Positions 29,507 to 37,404 of a DNA stretch of 47,665 nucleotides are shown here, in pieces (the stretch's first letter is position 1; each line of letters begins with the position of its first letter). The notes below the pieces were generated by a model, which had not been told where the DNA came from, did not search any database, and worked only from the letters and a program-made list of their open reading frames with translations. The DNA comes from a candidate division WOR-3 bacterium (GTDB lineage: Bacteria > Hydrothermota > Hydrothermia > LBFQ01): the NCBI GenBank assembly GCA_027002825.1, contig JALWZG010000072.1, positions 1 through 47,665 on the forward strand. Reading direction: 5' to 3'. The position numbers and the translations under genes were made by a program.

Positions 29507-30865
29507 ATGTTAAAACAGCTCCTCTACGATCTCGCCGAAGGGGTTTTGAGGATCTCCAACGCCGAACAGACGGTGGTGTTGGTCAAAGGTGAGAGGTCAA
29601 GGCTTGTAAGGTTTGCCAATTCACGTGTGCATCAGAACACAGAGGTCAGAAACGTCTCCATCAGCGTTCACGTCCGGTTTGGAAACAGGGCCGCCACGGC
29701 CGAGAGCAACGCCATAAACTCCCCGGAGGACATAGCAAGCCTTGTGAGGAAGGCCGAAGAGATGGCCAAAATCTCACCGGAAAATCCGGAGCTCTTGGAG
29801 GTGCCCAAATCCGGAAAACTGGAAACCTCACCCGACACGTTTGACGAACTGACGGCCGAGGCGGATCCGTCCCACCTCATAGATATGGCCACCCGCCTGA
29901 TAAAGGGAACCCCCAAGCCCTTTGAGGCTTTCGGGACGATCTCCGGCGGAGCGGACGAGATGGTAGTCCTGACCTCGGAGGGGTTTGAGGGGTACAGGGG
30001 TGTGACGGCGGCGCACGTCAAGTACAACCCCATACACGACCTTACACACGGTTATCTCGTCCAGAAATCCGGTCACACGTTCAGGGACTTTGACGTTGAG
30101 CTTATACTCCAGCGCGCTCAGGACAGGCTTTCCTTCGTTTTAAACCCGGCCGAACCCCAACCGGGCAAATGGACGGTCATCCTTGAACCCCTTGCCGTCG
30201 CCGAGCTTTTGGGTTTCCTCAACTGGATGGGCCTCTCGGCCAGGTCGGTTCTGGACGGAATATCACCCCTTGGCGAAAAGCTGGGAAAGGGGATCTTTTC
30301 GGAAAGGTTTACACTTTACGACGATCCCCTCAACCCCAGGGGGTACCCCTTCCCGTTTGACGCGGAGGGGAGGAAGAAGGGGCTTACAACCGTGGTTGAA
30401 AGGGGTGTCCTTAAAAACCTCGCCCATGACAGCATCACGGCCAAGAGGCTGGGTACAAAGTCCAACGCCTGCGCCACTACGCTTCAGGCGAGCAGGCCCA
30501 TGTTCCTCAACCTCAGGCTGAAGGAAGGTGATGAGGGGTACGGGGAGATCTTGAACGGGAGTGAGAGGGCGTTACTCGTGACGAGGTTCTGGTACACCAA
30601 CATCGTAAACCCAAGGGACCTGAGCATCACGGGTATGACGAGGGATGGACTGTTTTTGGTTGAGGACGGTAGGATAGTGGGGAGTGTCAAGAACATGCGT
30701 TTCAACGTAAGCCTGTTTGACGTCTTCTCCAACGTCGTTTCCGTCTCCAAGGAAAGCGAACCTGTTGGGGATTCCACCTGGTACGGCCCTTTCATCGCCA
30801 TAGGTGCGATCGTTCCCACGCTCAAAGTGGAAGGGTTCAACTTTTCATCGTCAACCCTGTTCTGA
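29507..30865 (+). CDS. TldD/PmbA family protein (PmbA/TldE-like, no HExxH)
   Basis: RFANS.VHQN, PG.WTVILEP.AV, DDP, FDAEG, TG.TRDG.FLVEDG. Start moved to ATG 29507 because ATG 29498 lies inside the -10 box. Confidence 0.9.
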   Translation: MLKQLLYDLAEGVLRISNAEQTVVLVKGERSRLVRFANSRVHQNTEVRNVSISVHVRFGNRAATAESNAINSPEDIASLVRKAEEMAKISPENPELLEVPKSGKLETSPDTFDELTAEADPSHLIDMATRLIKGTPKPFEAFGTISGGADEMVVLTSEGFEGYRGVTAAHVKYNPIHDLTHGYLVQKSGHTFRDFDVELILQRAQDRLSFVLNPAEPQPGKWTVILEPLAVAELLGFLNWMGLSARSVLDGISPLGEKLGKGIFSERFTLYDDPLNPRGYPFPFDAEGRKKGLTTVVERGVLKNLAHDSITAKRLGTKSNACATTLQASRPMFLNLRLKEGDEGYGEILNGSERALLVTRFWYTNIVNPRDLSITGMTRDGLFLVEDGRIVGSVKNMRFNVSLFDVFSNVVSVSKESEPVGDSTWYGPFIAIGAIVPTLKVEGFNFSSSTLF

Positions 30866-32502
30866 TGTGGTTCTTCCCCTTTTTGGACAGTCTCTTGGCC
30901 TACGGGGGACTCTCAAGGGTTGACCTCACCTTTGAAAAGGATCTGTCAACCCGAACGCTCTTCAAACCCCAACCCGTTCTCCGCTACCTATCCGATCCCC
31001 TCTCCCTGATGGTTTGGGCATCGGACGGTGGAAAGTACGTCACCGTTAAACCCGAAAGCCTACCCGCGACCTTTTGGCCCGTCAGGTACAGAAAGGTCAG
31101 AATGCGCACCCGCTTTACCGTAAGGGACAGCACGATCAAGAGGATCGTTGAGACCCTCTACTGTGTGGATTACTTTGAGGGTAGGGCTTTTCTGAGGGTT
31201 GGCAGGAGGAGGGATACGTTGAGGGAGAGGTTGAAGCGAGCCTGGGACCCGAGCGCACCGGACGGTGATTCGTTGACGTTTGCGGAGGTGCGTCTCGCCG
31301 TGGACTCCGTCGATTACAACCTCCTCCTCAACGCCTTCGGCTGCCTCTTAAACCTGGACACCTCACTCGTCCCCCGAATGGAGGGGGATTTTCAGTACGA
31401 GTACATAACGGGCTTTGGAAAGGTAGCCGTCGGGGGAACTGGAAGCAACACCTACAGGGGAAGGTACGCGGCCATTTACGACTTCGGAGGGGATGACTCC
31501 TACTTCCTCGAGAGCTCCCCCACGCTGATAGTGGACCTCGGGGGGAACGATAGGTATTGGGGGGAGTTCGCGTCGGGCATCGTGGGTGTTTCCGCCCTTT
31601 ACGACCTCGCCGGGAACGATGTGTACGAGTGTGATGGCGTTTGCGCCGGTGTGGGTCTCATGGGGTTCGGTCTACTTTACGATAGGAGTGGGGACGATTA
31701 CTACTCCGCCGGCTACCACTCCCTCGGCGCCGGCACCTTTGGAGGGGGCTATCTTATGGACAGGGAGGGGAACGATGTGTACAAAGGTGTAATATACGGC
31801 CAGGGGTTTGCCGGGACATACGGAGTGGGTATTCTTTCGGACTCTTCCGGGAACGACGTGTACGCCCTCGGATACGGCCCAATACACGCCCCCCTGTTCA
31901 AAACCCAGCACCAGTCCTTGGGGCAGGGCTTTTCCATAGGCTGGAGGGACAGGTTCGGAGGAGGTGTGGGGGTCCTGGCGGACGGTTCCGGAAACGACCA
32001 TTACCTCGCAGGCACGTACGCCCAAGGCGTCTCCTATTGGTACGCCCTGGGTTTGCTTTACGATGGGGGCGGAGATGACAGGTACATATGCGCTGAGTAC
32101 TGTCAGGGGGCCGGGATACACGTTTCCGTGGGGGCGTTGGTGGATAAATCGGGTGATGACCTCTACTACGCCATGTTCGGTCCGAGCATAGGTGAGGGAC
32201 ACGACTTCTCGGTCGGCTTCTTTTACGATTCAACGGGGAACGATACGTACTACACCAGCGGTGGTTTCGGGGTCGGGCTTACCAACTCCGTCGGAATATT
32301 CGTGGACGGCGGAGGGAAGGACAACTACTCGGCTCGTGAGAAGGAGATCTCCTTCGGAGGGGCGAACGAGAAGCGGGAGATGGGAGGTATAGGTGTGTTT
32401 CTGGACCTCGGAGGTGAAAGGGACACCTACCCCATGCTCTTCCACACGAAAAACGGACACCTATGGGTCAGACCCAAATGGGGACTCGGATGGGACAGGT
32501 AG
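30865..32502 (+). CDS. Exported Gly/Asp-rich repeat protein (about 12 DxxGxDxY repeats)
   Basis: YDFGGDDSY, VDLGGNDRY, YDLAGNDVY, YDRSGDDYY and further copies; TGATG-coupled to the upstream gene. Confidence 0.8.
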   Translation: MWFFPFLDSLLAYGGLSRVDLTFEKDLSTRTLFKPQPVLRYLSDPLSLMVWASDGGKYVTVKPESLPATFWPVRYRKVRMRTRFTVRDSTIKRIVETLYCVDYFEGRAFLRVGRRRDTLRERLKRAWDPSAPDGDSLTFAEVRLAVDSVDYNLLLNAFGCLLNLDTSLVPRMEGDFQYEYITGFGKVAVGGTGSNTYRGRYAAIYDFGGDDSYFLESSPTLIVDLGGNDRYWGEFASGIVGVSALYDLAGNDVYECDGVCAGVGLMGFGLLYDRSGDDYYSAGYHSLGAGTFGGGYLMDREGNDVYKGVIYGQGFAGTYGVGILSDSSGNDVYALGYGPIHAPLFKTQHQSLGQGFSIGWRDRFGGGVGVLADGSGNDHYLAGTYAQGVSYWYALGLLYDGGGDDRYICAEYCQGAGIHVSVGALVDKSGDDLYYAMFGPSIGEGHDFSVGFFYDSTGNDTYYTSGGFGVGLTNSVGIFVDGGGKDNYSAREKEISFGGANEKREMGGIGVFLDLGGERDTYPMLFHTKNGHLWVRPKWGLGWDR

Positions 32503-32509
32503 GGATGCC

Positions 32510-33229
32510 TTGCGGTTGAACATAGGCATATACGATTCCGAGATCTCTTTGCGTTTTCCCAGGGGCCTGGCGGGCGTTTTGGAGGTGGTGGCGGAGATAA
32601 ACAGGTATTACACGTCAAGCGGGAGGAGGAGCATGTGCGCCTTTCCATCGGATAGGAACGAGTTCTTTCCCACACGGGGTGTGTTCCACGTGAGACCGGA
32701 TGACAGGTGGAAGACGGCGGCCTTTTTCGGTAGGGTTCTGAGAAACTTTTACGGTCCCAAAACCGTGAGGTTTGCGCTCTTCCACGCCAGTGCCGTATCC
32801 GACGGAGGGGGTGCCATAGTCTTTCTCGGCCATCACGCCTGGGGGAAGACCACACTTCTCAGGGGTTTCCTAAGTGCGGGCTACTCGTACCTATCCGACG
32901 ATATGGTGGCCGTGAACCTCAAAAGCGGATTGCTCCACCCAACCCTCCCCGTAGACCACAGGGTGAGGTTTGGGAGTGTGTCCCCCCCCGTACCTCTGAA
33001 CACCGTGTTCTTGATCAGGTATTCACCGCAGAGGGATGAGTCGGAGATCCGTGAAATCCCCCCCCATAAGGCCTTCCTCTCGGCCATGGAAAACCTCCTG
33101 AACCCGACCTCCGTGGGGGAGGATTCCCTGAAGACGCTTTTGCGGGTTTTCTCAGGAGCATCCTCCTACCGCACCTTCCACAGGGACTGGAGGGACGTTT
33201 TGAGGTTTCAGTCCCTCAGGTCCTCATAG
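32510..33229 (+). CDS. HPr kinase-related P-loop protein
   Basis: FHASAV...G.AIVFLGHHAWGKTT...G..YLSDD. Start uncertain (in-frame TTG 32510 or 32516; the ORF track starts at 32393). Confidence 0.72.
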   Translation: MRLNIGIYDSEISLRFPRGLAGVLEVVAEINRYYTSSGRRSMCAFPSDRNEFFPTRGVFHVRPDDRWKTAAFFGRVLRNFYGPKTVRFALFHASAVSDGGGAIVFLGHHAWGKTTLLRGFLSAGYSYLSDDMVAVNLKSGLLHPTLPVDHRVRFGSVSPPVPLNTVFLIRYSPQRDESEIREIPPHKAFLSAMENLLNPTSVGEDSLKTLLRVFSGASSYRTFHRDWRDVLRFQSLRSS

Positions 33230-33836: not shown

Positions 33837-35840
33837 ATGCGGTTTAGGGACTACGGAGAGTACCACGACCACTTCCGTCGCCTCATCCTGCTTGAGAGGG
33901 AGGCGGAGATCGAGTTCCACAGGAGGGAAATAAGGAGACTGCCCGGCTGGAAGAGGGAGAAGCTCGGCAGGGCCATTCTGAACCTCAGGGGGAAACTCGT
34001 GGGCAGAGGACTGGGGGGAACCTATCTGGTCAAGTACGTCCGTCAGGGGGGACTGCCCCAGACGGAGATAAAGGTGGGAGACCTCGTAATAGCGAGCAGG
34101 GGAAAACCGAAAGGGAACGAGGTACAGGGGACCGTAGTTGAGAAGACCCGTTTCTCCTTAACCGTGGCCTACGACAGGTACCCGCCCGACTACGCCCTCG
34201 GCAGGGGGGTCAGGGTAGACCTCTTCGCCAACGACGTAACCTTTCAGAGGATGTTGGACGCCCTCAAGGCCCTCAGGGGGCATCCTGACCTCCTCAACCT
34301 CCTCCTCGGAAGGGCAAAACCGGAGATAACTGAAACGGAGGTGGAGTTTAAAAACACCTCCCTGAACGGGAGCCAGAGGACGGCCGTTAAAAAGGCCATC
34401 GGCTCAAAGCCCGTTTTTCTCGTCCATGGCCCTCCGGGTACGGGGAAGACTACGACCGTAGTTGAGGCCATATACCAGTACGTCGCAAGGGGTAAGAAGG
34501 TGCTCGCCACGGCCGACTCCAACGTGGCCACGGACAACATGGTTGAGAGGCTCGCCGCCTACGGCATAAACGTGGTAAGGGTGGGAAACCCCTCCCGCAT
34601 AACCAAGGCCGTCGTGGAACATTCCCTTGACTATCTCCTCCAGTACGACGAGGACTACAAGAGAGCCTTGAAGATATACGAGGAGGTGGACAGACTCCGG
34701 CAGGAGCAGAAGGACTACCTCGCCCCGACACCGAGGTGGAGGAGGGGGCTCTCCGACGAACAGATACTGAGGCACGCAGAGACGGGAACACCGGTCCGGG
34801 GAGTCCACCCCAACGCCATAAGGAAGATGGCCGCCTGGATCAAACTCCAGAAACGGATAAACCACCTGATGGAGACGGCCAGAAAGTACGAGGCCATAGC
34901 CGTGGAGCGGATCCTGAGAAACGCCGACGTGGTATGCTCAACCAACTCCTCCGCCGGGAGCGAGGTCCTCGCCCACTTCAGGTTTGACATCGTCTTCATA
35001 GACGAGGCCACCCAATCCACAGAACCTTCCTGTCTTATACCCATGGTGAAGGGTAGCGCCTGGATAATGGCAGGGGACCACAAACAGCTTCCCCCCACGA
35101 TACTGAGCGAGGAGGCGGCAAGGCACCTGCAGATAACCCTGTTTGAGAGGCTCTTGAAGGTGTACGGGGAGGGTATAAAGGAGATGCTCCGGGTCCAGTA
35201 CAGGATGAACAGGGTAATAATGGACTTCCCCAACAGGATGTTCTACGAAGGGAAGCTCATAGCCCACGAGAGCGTCGCGGATCATACTTTGAGGGACCTG
35301 GGAGTTGTGCCGGAGGTCCTGAAGGGTCTCCCCCAACCCCTGCCCTTCGTCCTTGACCCCGACAGGCCCGTTATCTTCGCCGACACCCTCGGCAGGTCCC
35401 CTGAGAGGCAGAGGAGGGGGTCAACCTCCTACTACAACGAGGGGGAGGCGGATTTCGTCTTAAAGGTGGTGAAGGCCCTGCTTGACCTGAAGGTGCGGCC
35501 TGAGGATATAGGCGTTATATCCCCTTACGACGATCAGGTTGACCTGATAAGGGGCCTGCTCAACGGGAACGGGATACCGGAGGAGGTTGAAGTCAAGACC
35601 GTAGACGGTTTTCAGGGGAGGGAGAAGGAGGTTATAGTGGTCTCCTTCGTGAGGTCAAACGACAGGGGGGAGATGGGTTTTCTGAGCGACGTCAGGCGGT
35701 TGAACGTGGCCATAACGAGGCCGAAGAGGAAACTCATAACCGTTGGGGACTCCTTGACGCTAAGGGTGCATCCGGTCTACAAGGGGTTTATCAACTACAG
35801 CCTAAAGGCTGGGGGGTACGTTCGGCTTTTCCATCCTTAA
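33837..35840 (+). CDS. SF1 helicase, IGHMBP2/Upf1-like
   Basis: HGPPGTGKTTT, SNVATDN, IDEATQ, GDHKQLPPT, QYRMN, TVDGFQGREKE, RRLNVAITR. Confidence 0.95.
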   Translation: MRFRDYGEYHDHFRRLILLEREAEIEFHRREIRRLPGWKREKLGRAILNLRGKLVGRGLGGTYLVKYVRQGGLPQTEIKVGDLVIASRGKPKGNEVQGTVVEKTRFSLTVAYDRYPPDYALGRGVRVDLFANDVTFQRMLDALKALRGHPDLLNLLLGRAKPEITETEVEFKNTSLNGSQRTAVKKAIGSKPVFLVHGPPGTGKTTTVVEAIYQYVARGKKVLATADSNVATDNMVERLAAYGINVVRVGNPSRITKAVVEHSLDYLLQYDEDYKRALKIYEEVDRLRQEQKDYLAPTPRWRRGLSDEQILRHAETGTPVRGVHPNAIRKMAAWIKLQKRINHLMETARKYEAIAVERILRNADVVCSTNSSAGSEVLAHFRFDIVFIDEATQSTEPSCLIPMVKGSAWIMAGDHKQLPPTILSEEAARHLQITLFERLLKVYGEGIKEMLRVQYRMNRVIMDFPNRMFYEGKLIAHESVADHTLRDLGVVPEVLKGLPQPLPFVLDPDRPVIFADTLGRSPERQRRGSTSYYNEGEADFVLKVVKALLDLKVRPEDIGVISPYDDQVDLIRGLLNGNGIPEEVEVKTVDGFQGREKEVIVVSFVRSNDRGEMGFLSDVRRLNVAITRPKRKLITVGDSLTLRVHPVYKGFINYSLKAGGYVRLFHP

Positions 35841-35854
35841 AATCCGCACCGGTT

Positions 35855-37270
35855 ATGGTTAAGCTGTTTATCTTTGACAAACTGCGACCGCTGATGGGGG
35901 AGACGAACTCCTCCTCCGTCCACGTCCTCGTCCTTGGGCGGGAGACCTCCGAAGACTTCAAGGACTACGTCTCCATCCTAAAGGACTACGCCAAAGACGG
36001 CAAACTCGGACACGTACCCGGCCACAAACCGTGGCCGAACGAGGCGATAAGGGGTCTGGAACTTTGGAACTACATAATAGCCGCACTTTACGATTTTAGG
36101 AGGGACGATATTGCGAAGCGGTTGTCCGAGGTCCTGGGGGTGGAGGTGGTCCCGGACATAGGCTTTGAGGCCCTAAACCCCCTCCTCACGACCTATACCC
36201 TTGATAACGATAGCAGCTCTTTAGAGAACCTCTACTCTCCCCTGCGGAAGGTCAGAACTCCGGGGCAGCTCAACAAGCTCCTCAACGGGGTCCTCGTCGT
36301 CACCGCCGACTGGTTCTTTGAGCCGAGGGACTGGGAGGTGCTAAGGGAGGTCTTCAAGCCGGGTATGATATACGAAAACGGCAACAGGATAGTCCTCCTG
36401 TACCCGGAGACGGGCAAGAAGATACGCCTGAAGACGGACTTTGAGGAGTACAGGCCGGAGTTTCCGGAGTCCATAGACCTGAACATCTCCTACAGGTGCG
36501 ATGTCGGATGTCCCTACTGCTACATATCCGCCACACCGGAGGGGGAGGAGTGGAGGTTTGATCGGAAACTTTTGGACCAGATTTTCGGCTTTACCGGTGC
36601 GGATATTTTTGACCTGTGGCGGGAAAACGATAGCGTTGGCCTTGACTACCACCCTTTCATTGAGGTGGCCATAAACGTCAACAACCTCTTTGACTTTGGA
36701 AACCTCAAGGACCTCGTTGAAGACTTCAAGGTCAGCTCCTTCATCCCGAACCTTACCCTCCACTACACAACCGCCCTTAAACATCCGGAGGTCATTACGG
36801 ACCTACCCGCCCAGTGGGTGGGCGTCAGCGTTATGTCAGCCGAGCAGATAGACCACGTGCGCTCCCTCTTCCCCGAAGGGAGGATAGTCTTCCACATAAT
36901 AAACGGCGTATTCAGGGGCGTAGAGAAGGTCAAAGGCGAGAACGTCCTCATCCTCGGATACAAGAGGATGGGCAGGGGGGTGGGGTACAGGCCCCGGCTC
37001 TGGGAGTGGGACGTCGTAGAGACCCTGATGGAGAACGGGAACAACGTAGCCTTTGACGACCTCGCCGTTGAGCAACTGAAGGCCAAGGAGCATATAAGCG
37101 ACGATTACTTTGACCTCGTCCATATGGGGATGGACCGCCGGCACGCGATGTTCATAGACCTGGTGAGGGGGGAGTTCGCCCACACCTCAACCTCCGAGAG
37201 GCGGTTCAAGATTGAGGGGAGGAGCCTGAAGGAGATGTGGGACTTTTTAAATGGTCCCGGGAGGACTTGA
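35855..37270 (+). CDS. Radical SAM protein fused to an N-terminal ETNSSS-motif domain
   Basis: CxxxCxxC (CDVGCPYC, nt 36497-36520) after PEFPESIDLNI; ETNSSSVH at nt ~35900; 3' end overlaps tRNA-Ile. Confidence 0.8.
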   Translation: MVKLFIFDKLRPLMGETNSSSVHVLVLGRETSEDFKDYVSILKDYAKDGKLGHVPGHKPWPNEAIRGLELWNYIIAALYDFRRDDIAKRLSEVLGVEVVPDIGFEALNPLLTTYTLDNDSSSLENLYSPLRKVRTPGQLNKLLNGVLVVTADWFFEPRDWEVLREVFKPGMIYENGNRIVLLYPETGKKIRLKTDFEEYRPEFPESIDLNISYRCDVGCPYCYISATPEGEEWRFDRKLLDQIFGFTGADIFDLWRENDSVGLDYHPFIEVAINVNNLFDFGNLKDLVEDFKVSSFIPNLTLHYTTALKHPEVITDLPAQWVGVSVMSAEQIDHVRSLFPEGRIVFHIINGVFRGVEKVKGENVLILGYKRMGRGVGYRPRLWEWDVVETLMENGNNVAFDDLAVEQLKAKEHISDDYFDLVHMGMDRRHAMFIDLVRGEFAHTSTSERRFKIEGRSLKEMWDFLNGPGRT

Positions 37271-37325
37271 ACCTCCGACCTCGCGGTTATCAGCCGCGCG
37301 CTCTGACCACCTGAGCTACGGGACC
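37252..37325 (-). tRNA. tRNA-Ile(GAT), CCA not encoded
   Basis: Acceptor GGTCCCG/CGGGACC+A, D-arm AGCTCAGGTGGTCAGAGC, anticodon arm CGCGG-CTGATAA-CCGCG, T-loop GGTTCAAGTCC. Confidence 0.96.
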
Positions 37326-37331
37326 CCGTAG

Positions 37332-37404
37332 TGGCCGGGGAGGGAGTCGAACCCCCGACACAGGGATTTTCAGTCCCCTGCTCTACCGCCTGAGCTACCC
37401 GGCC
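37332..37404 (-). tRNA. tRNA-Phe(GAA), CCA not encoded
   Basis: Acceptor GGCCGGG/CCCGGCC+A, anticodon arm GGGGA-CTGAAAA-TCCCT, T-loop GGTTCGACTCC. Confidence 0.96.

Follow-up and report, generated by a model that had tools for sequence, protein, structure and literature searches.

A phage-type radical SAM domain fused to an ETNSSS-tagged domain: a candidate maturase and client in one bacterial protein

Results

A single open reading frame joins the two domains

The window analysed here, 47,665 nucleotides from a candidate division WOR-3 bacterium (contig JALWZG010000072.1 of GCA_027002825.1, a 113-contig assembly that is 86% complete), carries on its forward strand an open reading frame (ORF) of 471 amino acids in which an N-terminal domain bearing the motif E-T-N-S-S-S precedes a radical S-adenosylmethionine (SAM) domain (Table 1). 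An earlier note, made from the sequence alone, had proposed this pairing as a candidate self-modifying system of substrate and enzyme, and our analysis supports that interpretation as far as computation goes: on balance, the gene product is probably a maturase, a radical SAM enzyme that modifies proteins, joined in one chain to the client on which it acts.

Both units described in that note, the ETNSSS unit and the radical SAM unit from ATG 36365, can be read in the one ORF, with the strings it quoted. The first 23 residues are MVKLFIFDKLRPLMGETNSSSVH. Met171 (nt 36365) opens the radical SAM unit, which reads IYENGN...GKKIR...PEFPESIDLNISYRCDVGCPYCY, and the ORF also contains LILGYKRMGRG, VAFDDLAVEQL and MFIDLVRGEFAHTSTSERRF.

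The 471-residue ORF is real and intact. Fused ORFs, likewise intact, are present in P0001/L002 (95% amino acid identity), P0002, P0003/L004 (43–47%) and L003 (27%), and the gene has no indels in contigs of four sequencing runs from three studies. The domain junction is spanned by contigs of three of these runs (X1, X3 and X9), and none of 40 listed substitutions creates a stop; 50 further substitutions occur besides. The recurrence of intact fused ORFs, together with these independent, indel-free contigs, argues that the fusion is no assembly artefact. An apparent joint skipping 36526–36674 involved contigs that match just 63 nt around the cluster motif; these are paralogues, and there is no deletion. 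We found no Shine-Dalgarno sequence before ATG 35855 and no terminator-like site between the upstream helicase gene and the fused gene; a GGAGG lies 14 nt ahead of ATG 36365, too distant to argue for a separate start of the radical SAM unit.

Table 1. Features of the fused gene and its right border. aa, amino acids; AF2, AlphaFold2; pLDDT, predicted local distance difference test; pTM, predicted template modelling score.
Feature	Position	Strand	Basis or remarks
Whole ORF, tag domain and radical SAM domain	35855..37270	+	471 aa; full-length homologues P0001 (95%), P0002/P0003 (43%); AF2 pLDDT 83.2, pTM 0.84
N-terminal tag, aa 1-28: strand KLFIFDKLR, loop, start of first core strand	35855..35938	+	AF2; the equivalent in the phage partner is the predicted interface
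E16-T-N-S-S-S21 motif	35900..35917	+	Codons gag acg aac tcc tcc tcc; H23 at 35921-35923
Tag-bearing domain, aa 1-170, family without a name	35855..36364	+	hhalign to phage long type; dN/dS 0.048 versus G003 copy
Radical SAM domain, aa 171-471, phrog_16999 family	36365..37267	+	Profile match, invariant columns, fold
Beta-meander Y173-x-N-G-N ... G187-K-K-I-R191 opening the radical SAM domain; predicted tag-docking strand	36371..36427	+	AF2 strands 171-175, 178-183, 188-193
C215-x3-C219-x2-C222, ligands of the radical SAM [4Fe-4S] cluster	36497..36520	+	Sole cysteines of the protein; weak Pfam Radical_SAM match, aa 210-232
tRNA-Ile (GAT)	37252..37325	-	ARAGORN; Rfam tRNA 72.7 bits; 3' end overlaps last 19 nt of ORF; right cassette border
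tRNA-Phe (GAA), adjoining tRNA-Ile	37331..37404	-	ARAGORN, Rfam

The C-terminal half belongs to a phage radical SAM family

The window protein matches the phage family phrog_16999 at E = 1.7e-18 (68.2 bits, in two stretches). P0002, from the same clade, matches it at 5.6e-19 over profile positions 6–269 of 288, and other relatives do so down to 1e-38 to 1e-41; the label "phage-type" given earlier to the enzyme was apt, and it extends to the tagged proteins, whose nearest ESM Atlas clusters lack names and are 88–100% viral. An exhaustive search at E ≤ 1e-3 gave a family of 1166 representatives (50% identity), most of them stand-alone proteins of ~300 residues that align to residues 171–470 alone. 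All 23 invariant columns of a 36-sequence alignment (A1) are kept in the window domain; E270, H347, K370, D401 and S445 are among the invariant residues of the enzyme. The CX3CX2C motif, CDVGCPYC in the window protein, is invariant across A1 and contains all 3 cysteines found in the 471 residues; the C-terminal auxiliary-cluster cysteines of SPASM or twitch domains are absent, as the earlier note had said of SPASM. On the SAM-binding strand the family consensus is ExAIGGGNP or ExAINGNDL, and the window sequence EVAINVNN keeps E270 and A272. No PqqD/RRE domain matched the window protein in Pfam at E ≤ 1, and the beta-meander of residues 171–193 occupies its place.

The fold agrees with this assignment. 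In the AF2 model of the fused protein, pLDDT is 91–98 across most of residues 271–460, and a Foldseek search of the Protein Data Bank (PDB) with the radical SAM domain returned 10 matches at E ≤ 1e-3, all radical SAM enzymes. The nearest solved folds are SuiB (5v1s, the best, E = 6.7e-6), SkfB, EpeE and CteB, all of them peptide maturases (E 6.7e-6 to 1e-3, template modelling scores of about 0.3–0.45, identity 9–12%). As modelled, the domain is a partial TIM barrel and a single-cluster radical SAM enzyme.

No NCBIfam model covers the clade. Sixty radical SAM relatives gave sub-threshold matches only (W-cofactor maturase 14, MoaA 12, HxsC 10), and none of these families applies. Matches from T4-like phages of Klebsiella, Enterobacter and Cronobacter (27% coverage; for example Miro gp194) belong to a different, SPASM-containing radical SAM family. 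Two stand-alone relatives, P0129 and P0131, carry an intein-like insertion (ending ..VHNC) inside CX3CX2C.

Tagged proteins accompany the enzyme in phage genomes

According to the earlier note, phages often encode small tagged proteins beside a separate radical SAM gene, and phage loci bear this out. We retrieved loci from IMG/VR by radical SAM alignment and analysed the best 80 of 96 confirmed ones. The strict motif ETNSSS.H, near the start of an ORF and on the strand of the radical SAM gene, is present in 74 of the 80, with tagged starts of the pattern M..IR..FETNSSSxH; on the opposite strand it occurs 0 times across 961,326 nt, and a reversed, looser control motif was met in 1 of 80 loci. 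The number of tagged ORFs per locus ranges from none (6 loci) through one (32), two (29), three (9) and four (1) to five (3). The nearest lies within 1.5 kb of the radical SAM gene in 71 of the 74 loci and upstream of it in 60. Every other gene family is confined to 16 or fewer of the 80 loci, which makes the enzyme and its tagged proteins the module. An example is Microcystis phage Ma-LMM01, where the tagged gp130 (MLSIQVRQGVFETNSSSTH...) is followed by gp129 and then by gp128, the radical SAM protein ("Fe-S oxidoreductase"), two genes downstream.

Two further kinds of gene were seen around the module. ORFs of AP2/HNH-like homing-endonuclease type occur in 16 of the 80 phage loci, and a family of ~277 residues in 14 of the 80 (for example L026:1781-2614); the latter may, we presume, resemble a tRNA-His guanylyltransferase-like protein.

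A common tag is carried by unrelated bodies

With the tag removed, 129 distinct tagged phage ORFs fall into 15 similarity groups (71, 38, 4, four of 2 and eight singletons) that have the tag alone in common. The largest is a long type (71 ORFs, 134–299 residues) with the motifs GEFGW, Y(I/V)DHQS and xNDN, followed by a short type (38 ORFs, 83–144 residues) ending in FGYYGYDG. Across 49 long-type sequences the E, T, N, S, S, S and H of the tag are invariant in every one, and the full set of invariant positions is R6, F10, E11–S16, H18, Y62 and D112. Across the tagged and fused proteins more widely, any of F, G, A, R, P, H and W may precede the tag Glu, and no Gly is conserved there. The tagged partners as a whole are folded proteins of 83–306 residues and are acidic, with a median pI of 4.64.

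The window tag, K9-L-R11-P-L-M-G-E16-T-N-S-S-S-V-H23, fits the long-type pattern, in which E-T-N-S-S-S-x-H stands within the first 25 residues after a basic ..IR.. strand, and it replaces F10 by G15; E, T, N, S and S are invariant across four fused copies of the genus. The likeness extends into the body. A profile comparison of the window N-terminal domain with the phage long type by hhalign gave a probability of 95.7 (E = 8.9e-9) over 87 columns (window residues 6–98), a score to which the tag itself contributes part, and by this comparison the domain is homologous to long-type tagged proteins beyond the tag. Of the long-type body motifs Y(I/V)DHQS and xNDN, the window clade keeps only the Asp after the last strand (VVTAD152).

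Neither family nor fold could be named for the tagged proteins. Residues 1–170 of the window protein matched no Pfam, NCBIfam, PHROG or PADLOC family; 49 tagged proteins gave no meaningful Pfam match, and their family none in NCBIfam or PADLOC. One long-type member modelled alone reached a pLDDT of 84.9. Searches for a PDB counterpart gave a best E of 0.29 by sequence, a best E of 1.2 by Foldseek and a best Z of 2.6 by VIA-align over 48,161 chains, an absence of matches that is no proof of a new fold. In BFVD the only matches were phage proteins of no characterised function, plus one fused "Radical_SAM" protein from a phage. A word-index search with the P0051 tag domain gave 2 matches, and partners were taken from the phage loci instead.

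A second conserved element, an aromatic-Gly C-terminus, lies at the other end of these proteins: many long-type partners end in ..(Y/F)(Y/W)KGN, as the short type does in its own terminal motif (for example L011:5157-5648, L022:5164-5664, L022:5688-5963 and L005 gp130).

Fusion of tag and enzyme has recurred

Among the best 150 of the 1166 family representatives, 14 are fused forms, with the tag domain first in 13 and last in one (P0118, in which the radical SAM domain precedes a short tagged domain). A start of the pattern ..IR..FETNSSSxH runs into the same radical SAM domain in P0024, P0030-37, P0034, P0051, P0064, P0066, P0081, P0121 and P0153. Five fusions of 559–593 residues (P0048, P0069, P0098, P0147 and P0160), with an N-terminal domain of ~270 residues, have a variant tag, (F/H/W)ETSSSSAS, lacking both Asn and His, which reduces the common core of the tag to E-T-(N/S)-S-S. 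On a FastTree phylogeny of 249 radical SAM domains, from which two intein-bearing sequences and those that were motif-less or too short were left out, the fused state requires 10 changes, at least three of them forced by well-supported branches. By this tree, the fusion of tag and radical SAM domain arose at least three times. The Rosetta-stone link suggested earlier from a single ORF is thus broader than that ORF, since it appears both as adjacency and as repeated fusion.

The tag is predicted to dock in the barrel of the enzyme

We modelled the complex of a phage radical SAM protein (L010:5962-6915) with its tagged partner (L010:5520-5972) in three runs alongside three controls. The pair scored 0.82 (runs of 0.82, 0.83 and 0.82) and the best control 0.00; of 80 solved complexes, 58 attain the mark for this score, as do 2 of 110 mismatched pairs, a calibration that is rough here because the alignments were our own. 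Between runs, at least 64% of contacts agree, and the partner pLDDT is no lower than 64. On the partner, the predicted interface comprises residues 1–28 only: residues 2–8 pair with the enzyme strand DGTKTRTW (residues 26–33), where the predicted error is lowest, and the rest of the tag contacts the C-terminal ends of the barrel strands (SIDMK, EVAIGG, NLT, HGLG, VIH, LILGYK, AFDNL, YMGDDG and SST). On the enzyme, it covers 69 of 318 residues, including 11 of 17 invariant positions (Fisher p = 1e-4); when near-invariant positions are counted too, the figure is 20 of 40 (p = 2e-5). The earlier proposal that the enzyme acts on or with the motif draws support from this controlled prediction, which lays residues 1–28 on the conserved interior of the barrel. 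We know of no solved complex of like kind.

When the partner was modelled alone, residues 21–100 had a pLDDT of 86–96, and residues 1–4 and 11–13 fell below 50; in the models, then, the most conserved part of the partner is a floppy tail. In the fused window model, residues 3–11 form a strand and the loop of residues 11–30 has a pLDDT of 81–84.

The gene moves as a cassette and its tag domain is conserved

The window gene is present in 3 of 41 related genomes, the source genome (G000) counted. One of them, G003, holds a 95% copy and a 47% paralogue; another, G004, has a fused relative (27–33%) adjoining an Amidase_3 gene. The window and G003 copies are 95.7% identical in nucleotides, but only over 35850–37245, and neighbouring genes are only 69–79% identical to those of congeners. 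The flanks differ too: the G003 copy has patatin and cobalamin adenosyltransferase genes as neighbours instead of the helicase gene, contigs of runs X3 and X9 part from the window sequence 2 nt before the ATG, and the C-terminal ends read NGPGRT in the window and QSQP in G003. Because identity ends at the gene borders and the flanks differ, the window copy is, by these comparisons, a recently moved one-gene cassette. No integrase was seen near the gene, no "empty site" was found in the congeners, where flanks differ in all that were searched, and the window protein used as a query against the genome-contig collection found no relative. The runs that bear the gene are labelled hydrothermal vent metagenomes; none of the 12 is listed as an RNA run, which says nothing either way about expression.

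Relative to the G003 copy (L002; 35855–37245), at a dS of 0.106 that is equal in the two domains, the tag domain has a dN/dS of 0.048. Among the 40 listed variants in other runs, the tag domain shows 16 synonymous and 2 replacement changes and the radical SAM domain 6 and 16. Many of the replacements relative to the G003 copy gather at residues 229–246, beside a low-confidence loop (pLDDT <50, residues 258–264). These substitution patterns mark the tag domain as being under strong purifying selection.

Discussion

A proposed mechanism

In the mechanism that we propose, the N-terminal strand of the window protein (residues 3–11) would dock by strand pairing on the beta-meander Y173..R191 and so bring E16-T-N-S-S-S21-V-H23 through the open face into the partial TIM barrel, over SAM and the [4Fe-4S] cluster held by C215/C219/C222. 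Reductive cleavage of SAM would then yield a 5'-deoxyadenosyl radical, which would take a hydrogen from a Thr or Ser of the tag, and the tag-bearing domain could be modified either in cis or between two copies. Because there is no auxiliary cluster and no other cysteine, the chemistry would probably end in one of three ways: a Ser or Thr side chain becomes a carbonyl and the same cluster takes the electron back, a residue is epimerised, or a radical is left on the protein. We would favour carbonyl formation or epimerisation, and a stored protein radical is possible too. In phages, where the enzyme is a separate protein, it would have one to five tagged clients, whose bodies are unrelated to one another. 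The docking geometry in this scheme is a prediction; that the tag is modified, and in what manner, we infer; and the attacked residue and the resulting cofactor, if any, are speculation.

A broader version of the idea seems plausible to us, though a little short of an even chance. The phage family would install a new kind of modification, a protein-bound radical or a cofactor on a portable N-terminal tag of 20–28 residues (..IR..FETNSSSxH) that has been grafted onto at least 15 unrelated bodies. On this view the tag would serve as a general "maturation handle", and the window gene would be a self-maturing single-chain form passed between bacteria as a one-gene cassette.

Alternative explanations

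Several observations weigh against a maturase fused to its client. The near-invariant, eight-residue polar motif (E, T, N, S, S, S, x, H) also resembles a loop that binds a ligand or takes part in catalysis more than it does a plain substrate, long-type partners hold further conserved residues (Y62 and D112 invariant, H113 and D149 near-invariant) that give them an enzyme-like air, and the DHQS motif is absent from the window clade. The window radical SAM domain reads AINVNN where many relatives read AIGGGNP, and the protein scores 14 bits against Pfam Radical_SAM (PF04055), under the gathering threshold of 29.5, so that its membership rests on the motif, the fold and its relatives, clear examples of which pass the threshold (P0030 35.6, P0031 42.3, P0034 42.3 and P0037 40.9 bits). 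Its dN/dS versus the G003 copy is 0.37, faster than that of the tag domain. Six of the 80 loci (L008, L009, L020, L023, L070 and L080) lack a tagged ORF at distances up to 6 kb, also when the pattern is relaxed, and their partner may lie elsewhere in the genome or be missing. The complex was predicted for a phage pair rather than for the window's own halves, and with SAM and the cluster absent from the model, a flexible tail might merely fill an empty cofactor pocket.

The conserved polar residues of tag and partner would also suit the main alternative, which we consider unlikely, though appreciably less so than the others below: that the tag belongs to the active site itself, plugging the open side of the barrel and supplying Glu, Ser or His, and that the enzyme really acts on a small molecule, nucleotide or nucleic acid, which the partner body delivers or processes further. 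Fusion in both orders, as for subunits of one enzyme, the modelled contacts of the peptide with nearly all conserved barrel residues, and the frequent setting of phage loci amid replication and nucleotide genes (in Ma-LMM01, primase and Holliday-junction resolvase) would all fit such a lid. Speaking against it, up to five partners with unrelated bodies accompany one enzyme, some partners have just 83–144 residues, residues 1–28 alone touch the enzyme in the model, and no third gene is consistently linked. An arrangement like that of pyruvate formate-lyase activase and the glycyl radical enzymes, in which the radical SAM enzyme leaves a stable protein radical on the tag for the partner domain to use catalytically, strikes us as improbable. 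It would suit a compact (~300 residues), single-cluster enzyme without auxiliary cysteines that serves several clients and, as modelled, acts on a flexible segment of a folded protein; yet the tag lacks a conserved glycine, neither the window protein nor any of 49 partners has a Pfam glycyl-radical match, and no activase stands among the 50 best Foldseek matches, which is weak evidence. That the halves are functionally unrelated, neighbours or fused by chance, or that the window copy is what is left of a decaying gene or a product of misassembly, is very improbable and largely refuted by the counts. The weaker constraint on the radical SAM domain (dN/dS 0.37 versus 0.048), the entry of the last 19 nt of the ORF into a tRNA gene and the 113-contig assembly could be read that way, but they stand against linkage in 74 of 80 loci with 0 to 1 control matches, fusions that recur independently, 23 of 23 invariant columns kept, an ORF intact in three studies, free of indels and of stops among the listed substitutions, and a predicted interface at 0.82 versus 0.00 for controls.

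Comparison with known systems

The closest relative by sequence is the phrog_16999 "Fe-S oxidoreductase" (Ma-LMM01 gp128), of the same family as the C-terminal 300 residues of the window protein and with the tagged gp130 nearby. These phages encode the two parts in separate genes, whereas the window, from a cellular genome, has both in a single ORF; the label in PHROG is annotation only. The closest folds belong to maturases of ribosomally synthesized and post-translationally modified peptides, SuiB/SuiA (5v1s, 5v1t), SkfB (6efn), EpeE/YydG (8ai1) and CteB (5why). These maturases bind one strand of their substrate at an N-terminal element, and a short motif close to that strand goes into the barrel, a logic like the one predicted, though only predicted, for the window protein. 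They differ in that the window enzyme lacks SPASM or twitch cysteines and a detectable PqqD-type domain, and in that they act on small precursor peptides, whereas the substrate proposed here is a tag at the N-terminus of folded proteins 83–306 residues long.

A working analogy for the maturase-client reading is offered by the anaerobic sulfatase maturases (anSME, AtsB) and their sulfatases, where one maturase recognises a short, invariant Ser-containing motif in several paralogous clients. These maturases modify their clients before full folding and thereby create a catalytic residue. They possess two auxiliary clusters in a SPASM domain that the window enzyme lacks, the sulfatase motif is C/S-x-P-x-R rather than ETNSSSVH, and no anSME stands among the 50 Foldseek matches listed. 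Glycyl radical activases (PFL-AE, NrdG) are likewise small and single-cluster, and their target is a loop in a folded partner; NCBIfam NrdG2 gave weak matches in 5 of 60 members of the radical SAM family; here, however, the tag has no conserved glycine and the partners have no glycyl-radical domain.

Significance

To our knowledge, few radical SAM enzymes act on whole proteins; they are the sulfatase maturases, the glycyl-radical activases and a small number whose targets are ribosomal proteins or proteins of methanogenesis. New chemistry came to light with each of them. Read as above, the window system is an undescribed form of such a protein-modifying enzyme with its client; we found no study of the ETNSSS tag or of the phage radical SAM family in the literature, although supplementary gene lists might mention the family. 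The enzyme family, for all its 1166 representatives, and the partner family both lie outside Pfam and NCBIfam. The eight-residue tag is a precise, testable site, and the fused window protein, which may be heat-stable given its hydrothermal-vent origin, is a convenient single-chain object for mass spectrometry and structure determination. The partners are acidic and phage-borne, and what they do once matured might conceivably bear on phage-host conflict.

Neighbouring genes

Ending 14 nt upstream of the fused gene is a gene for an Upf1-like SF1B helicase (33837–35840, +), which gave a PADLOC match to Mokosh MkoA (E = 1.2e-103) over the helicase part only; no PLD nuclease partner was seen beside it. 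The helicase gene is 93% and 90% identical in nucleotides to those of two congeners, within the gene borders only, and 75–79% identical to those of three others, and it has relatives at 73–77% identity; like the radical SAM gene, it may have been horizontally exchanged. Farther upstream, two ORFs just ahead of an AMMECR1 gene (30865–32502, +, 545 residues; 32393–33229, +, 278 residues) gave no Pfam match at E ≤ 1e-5.

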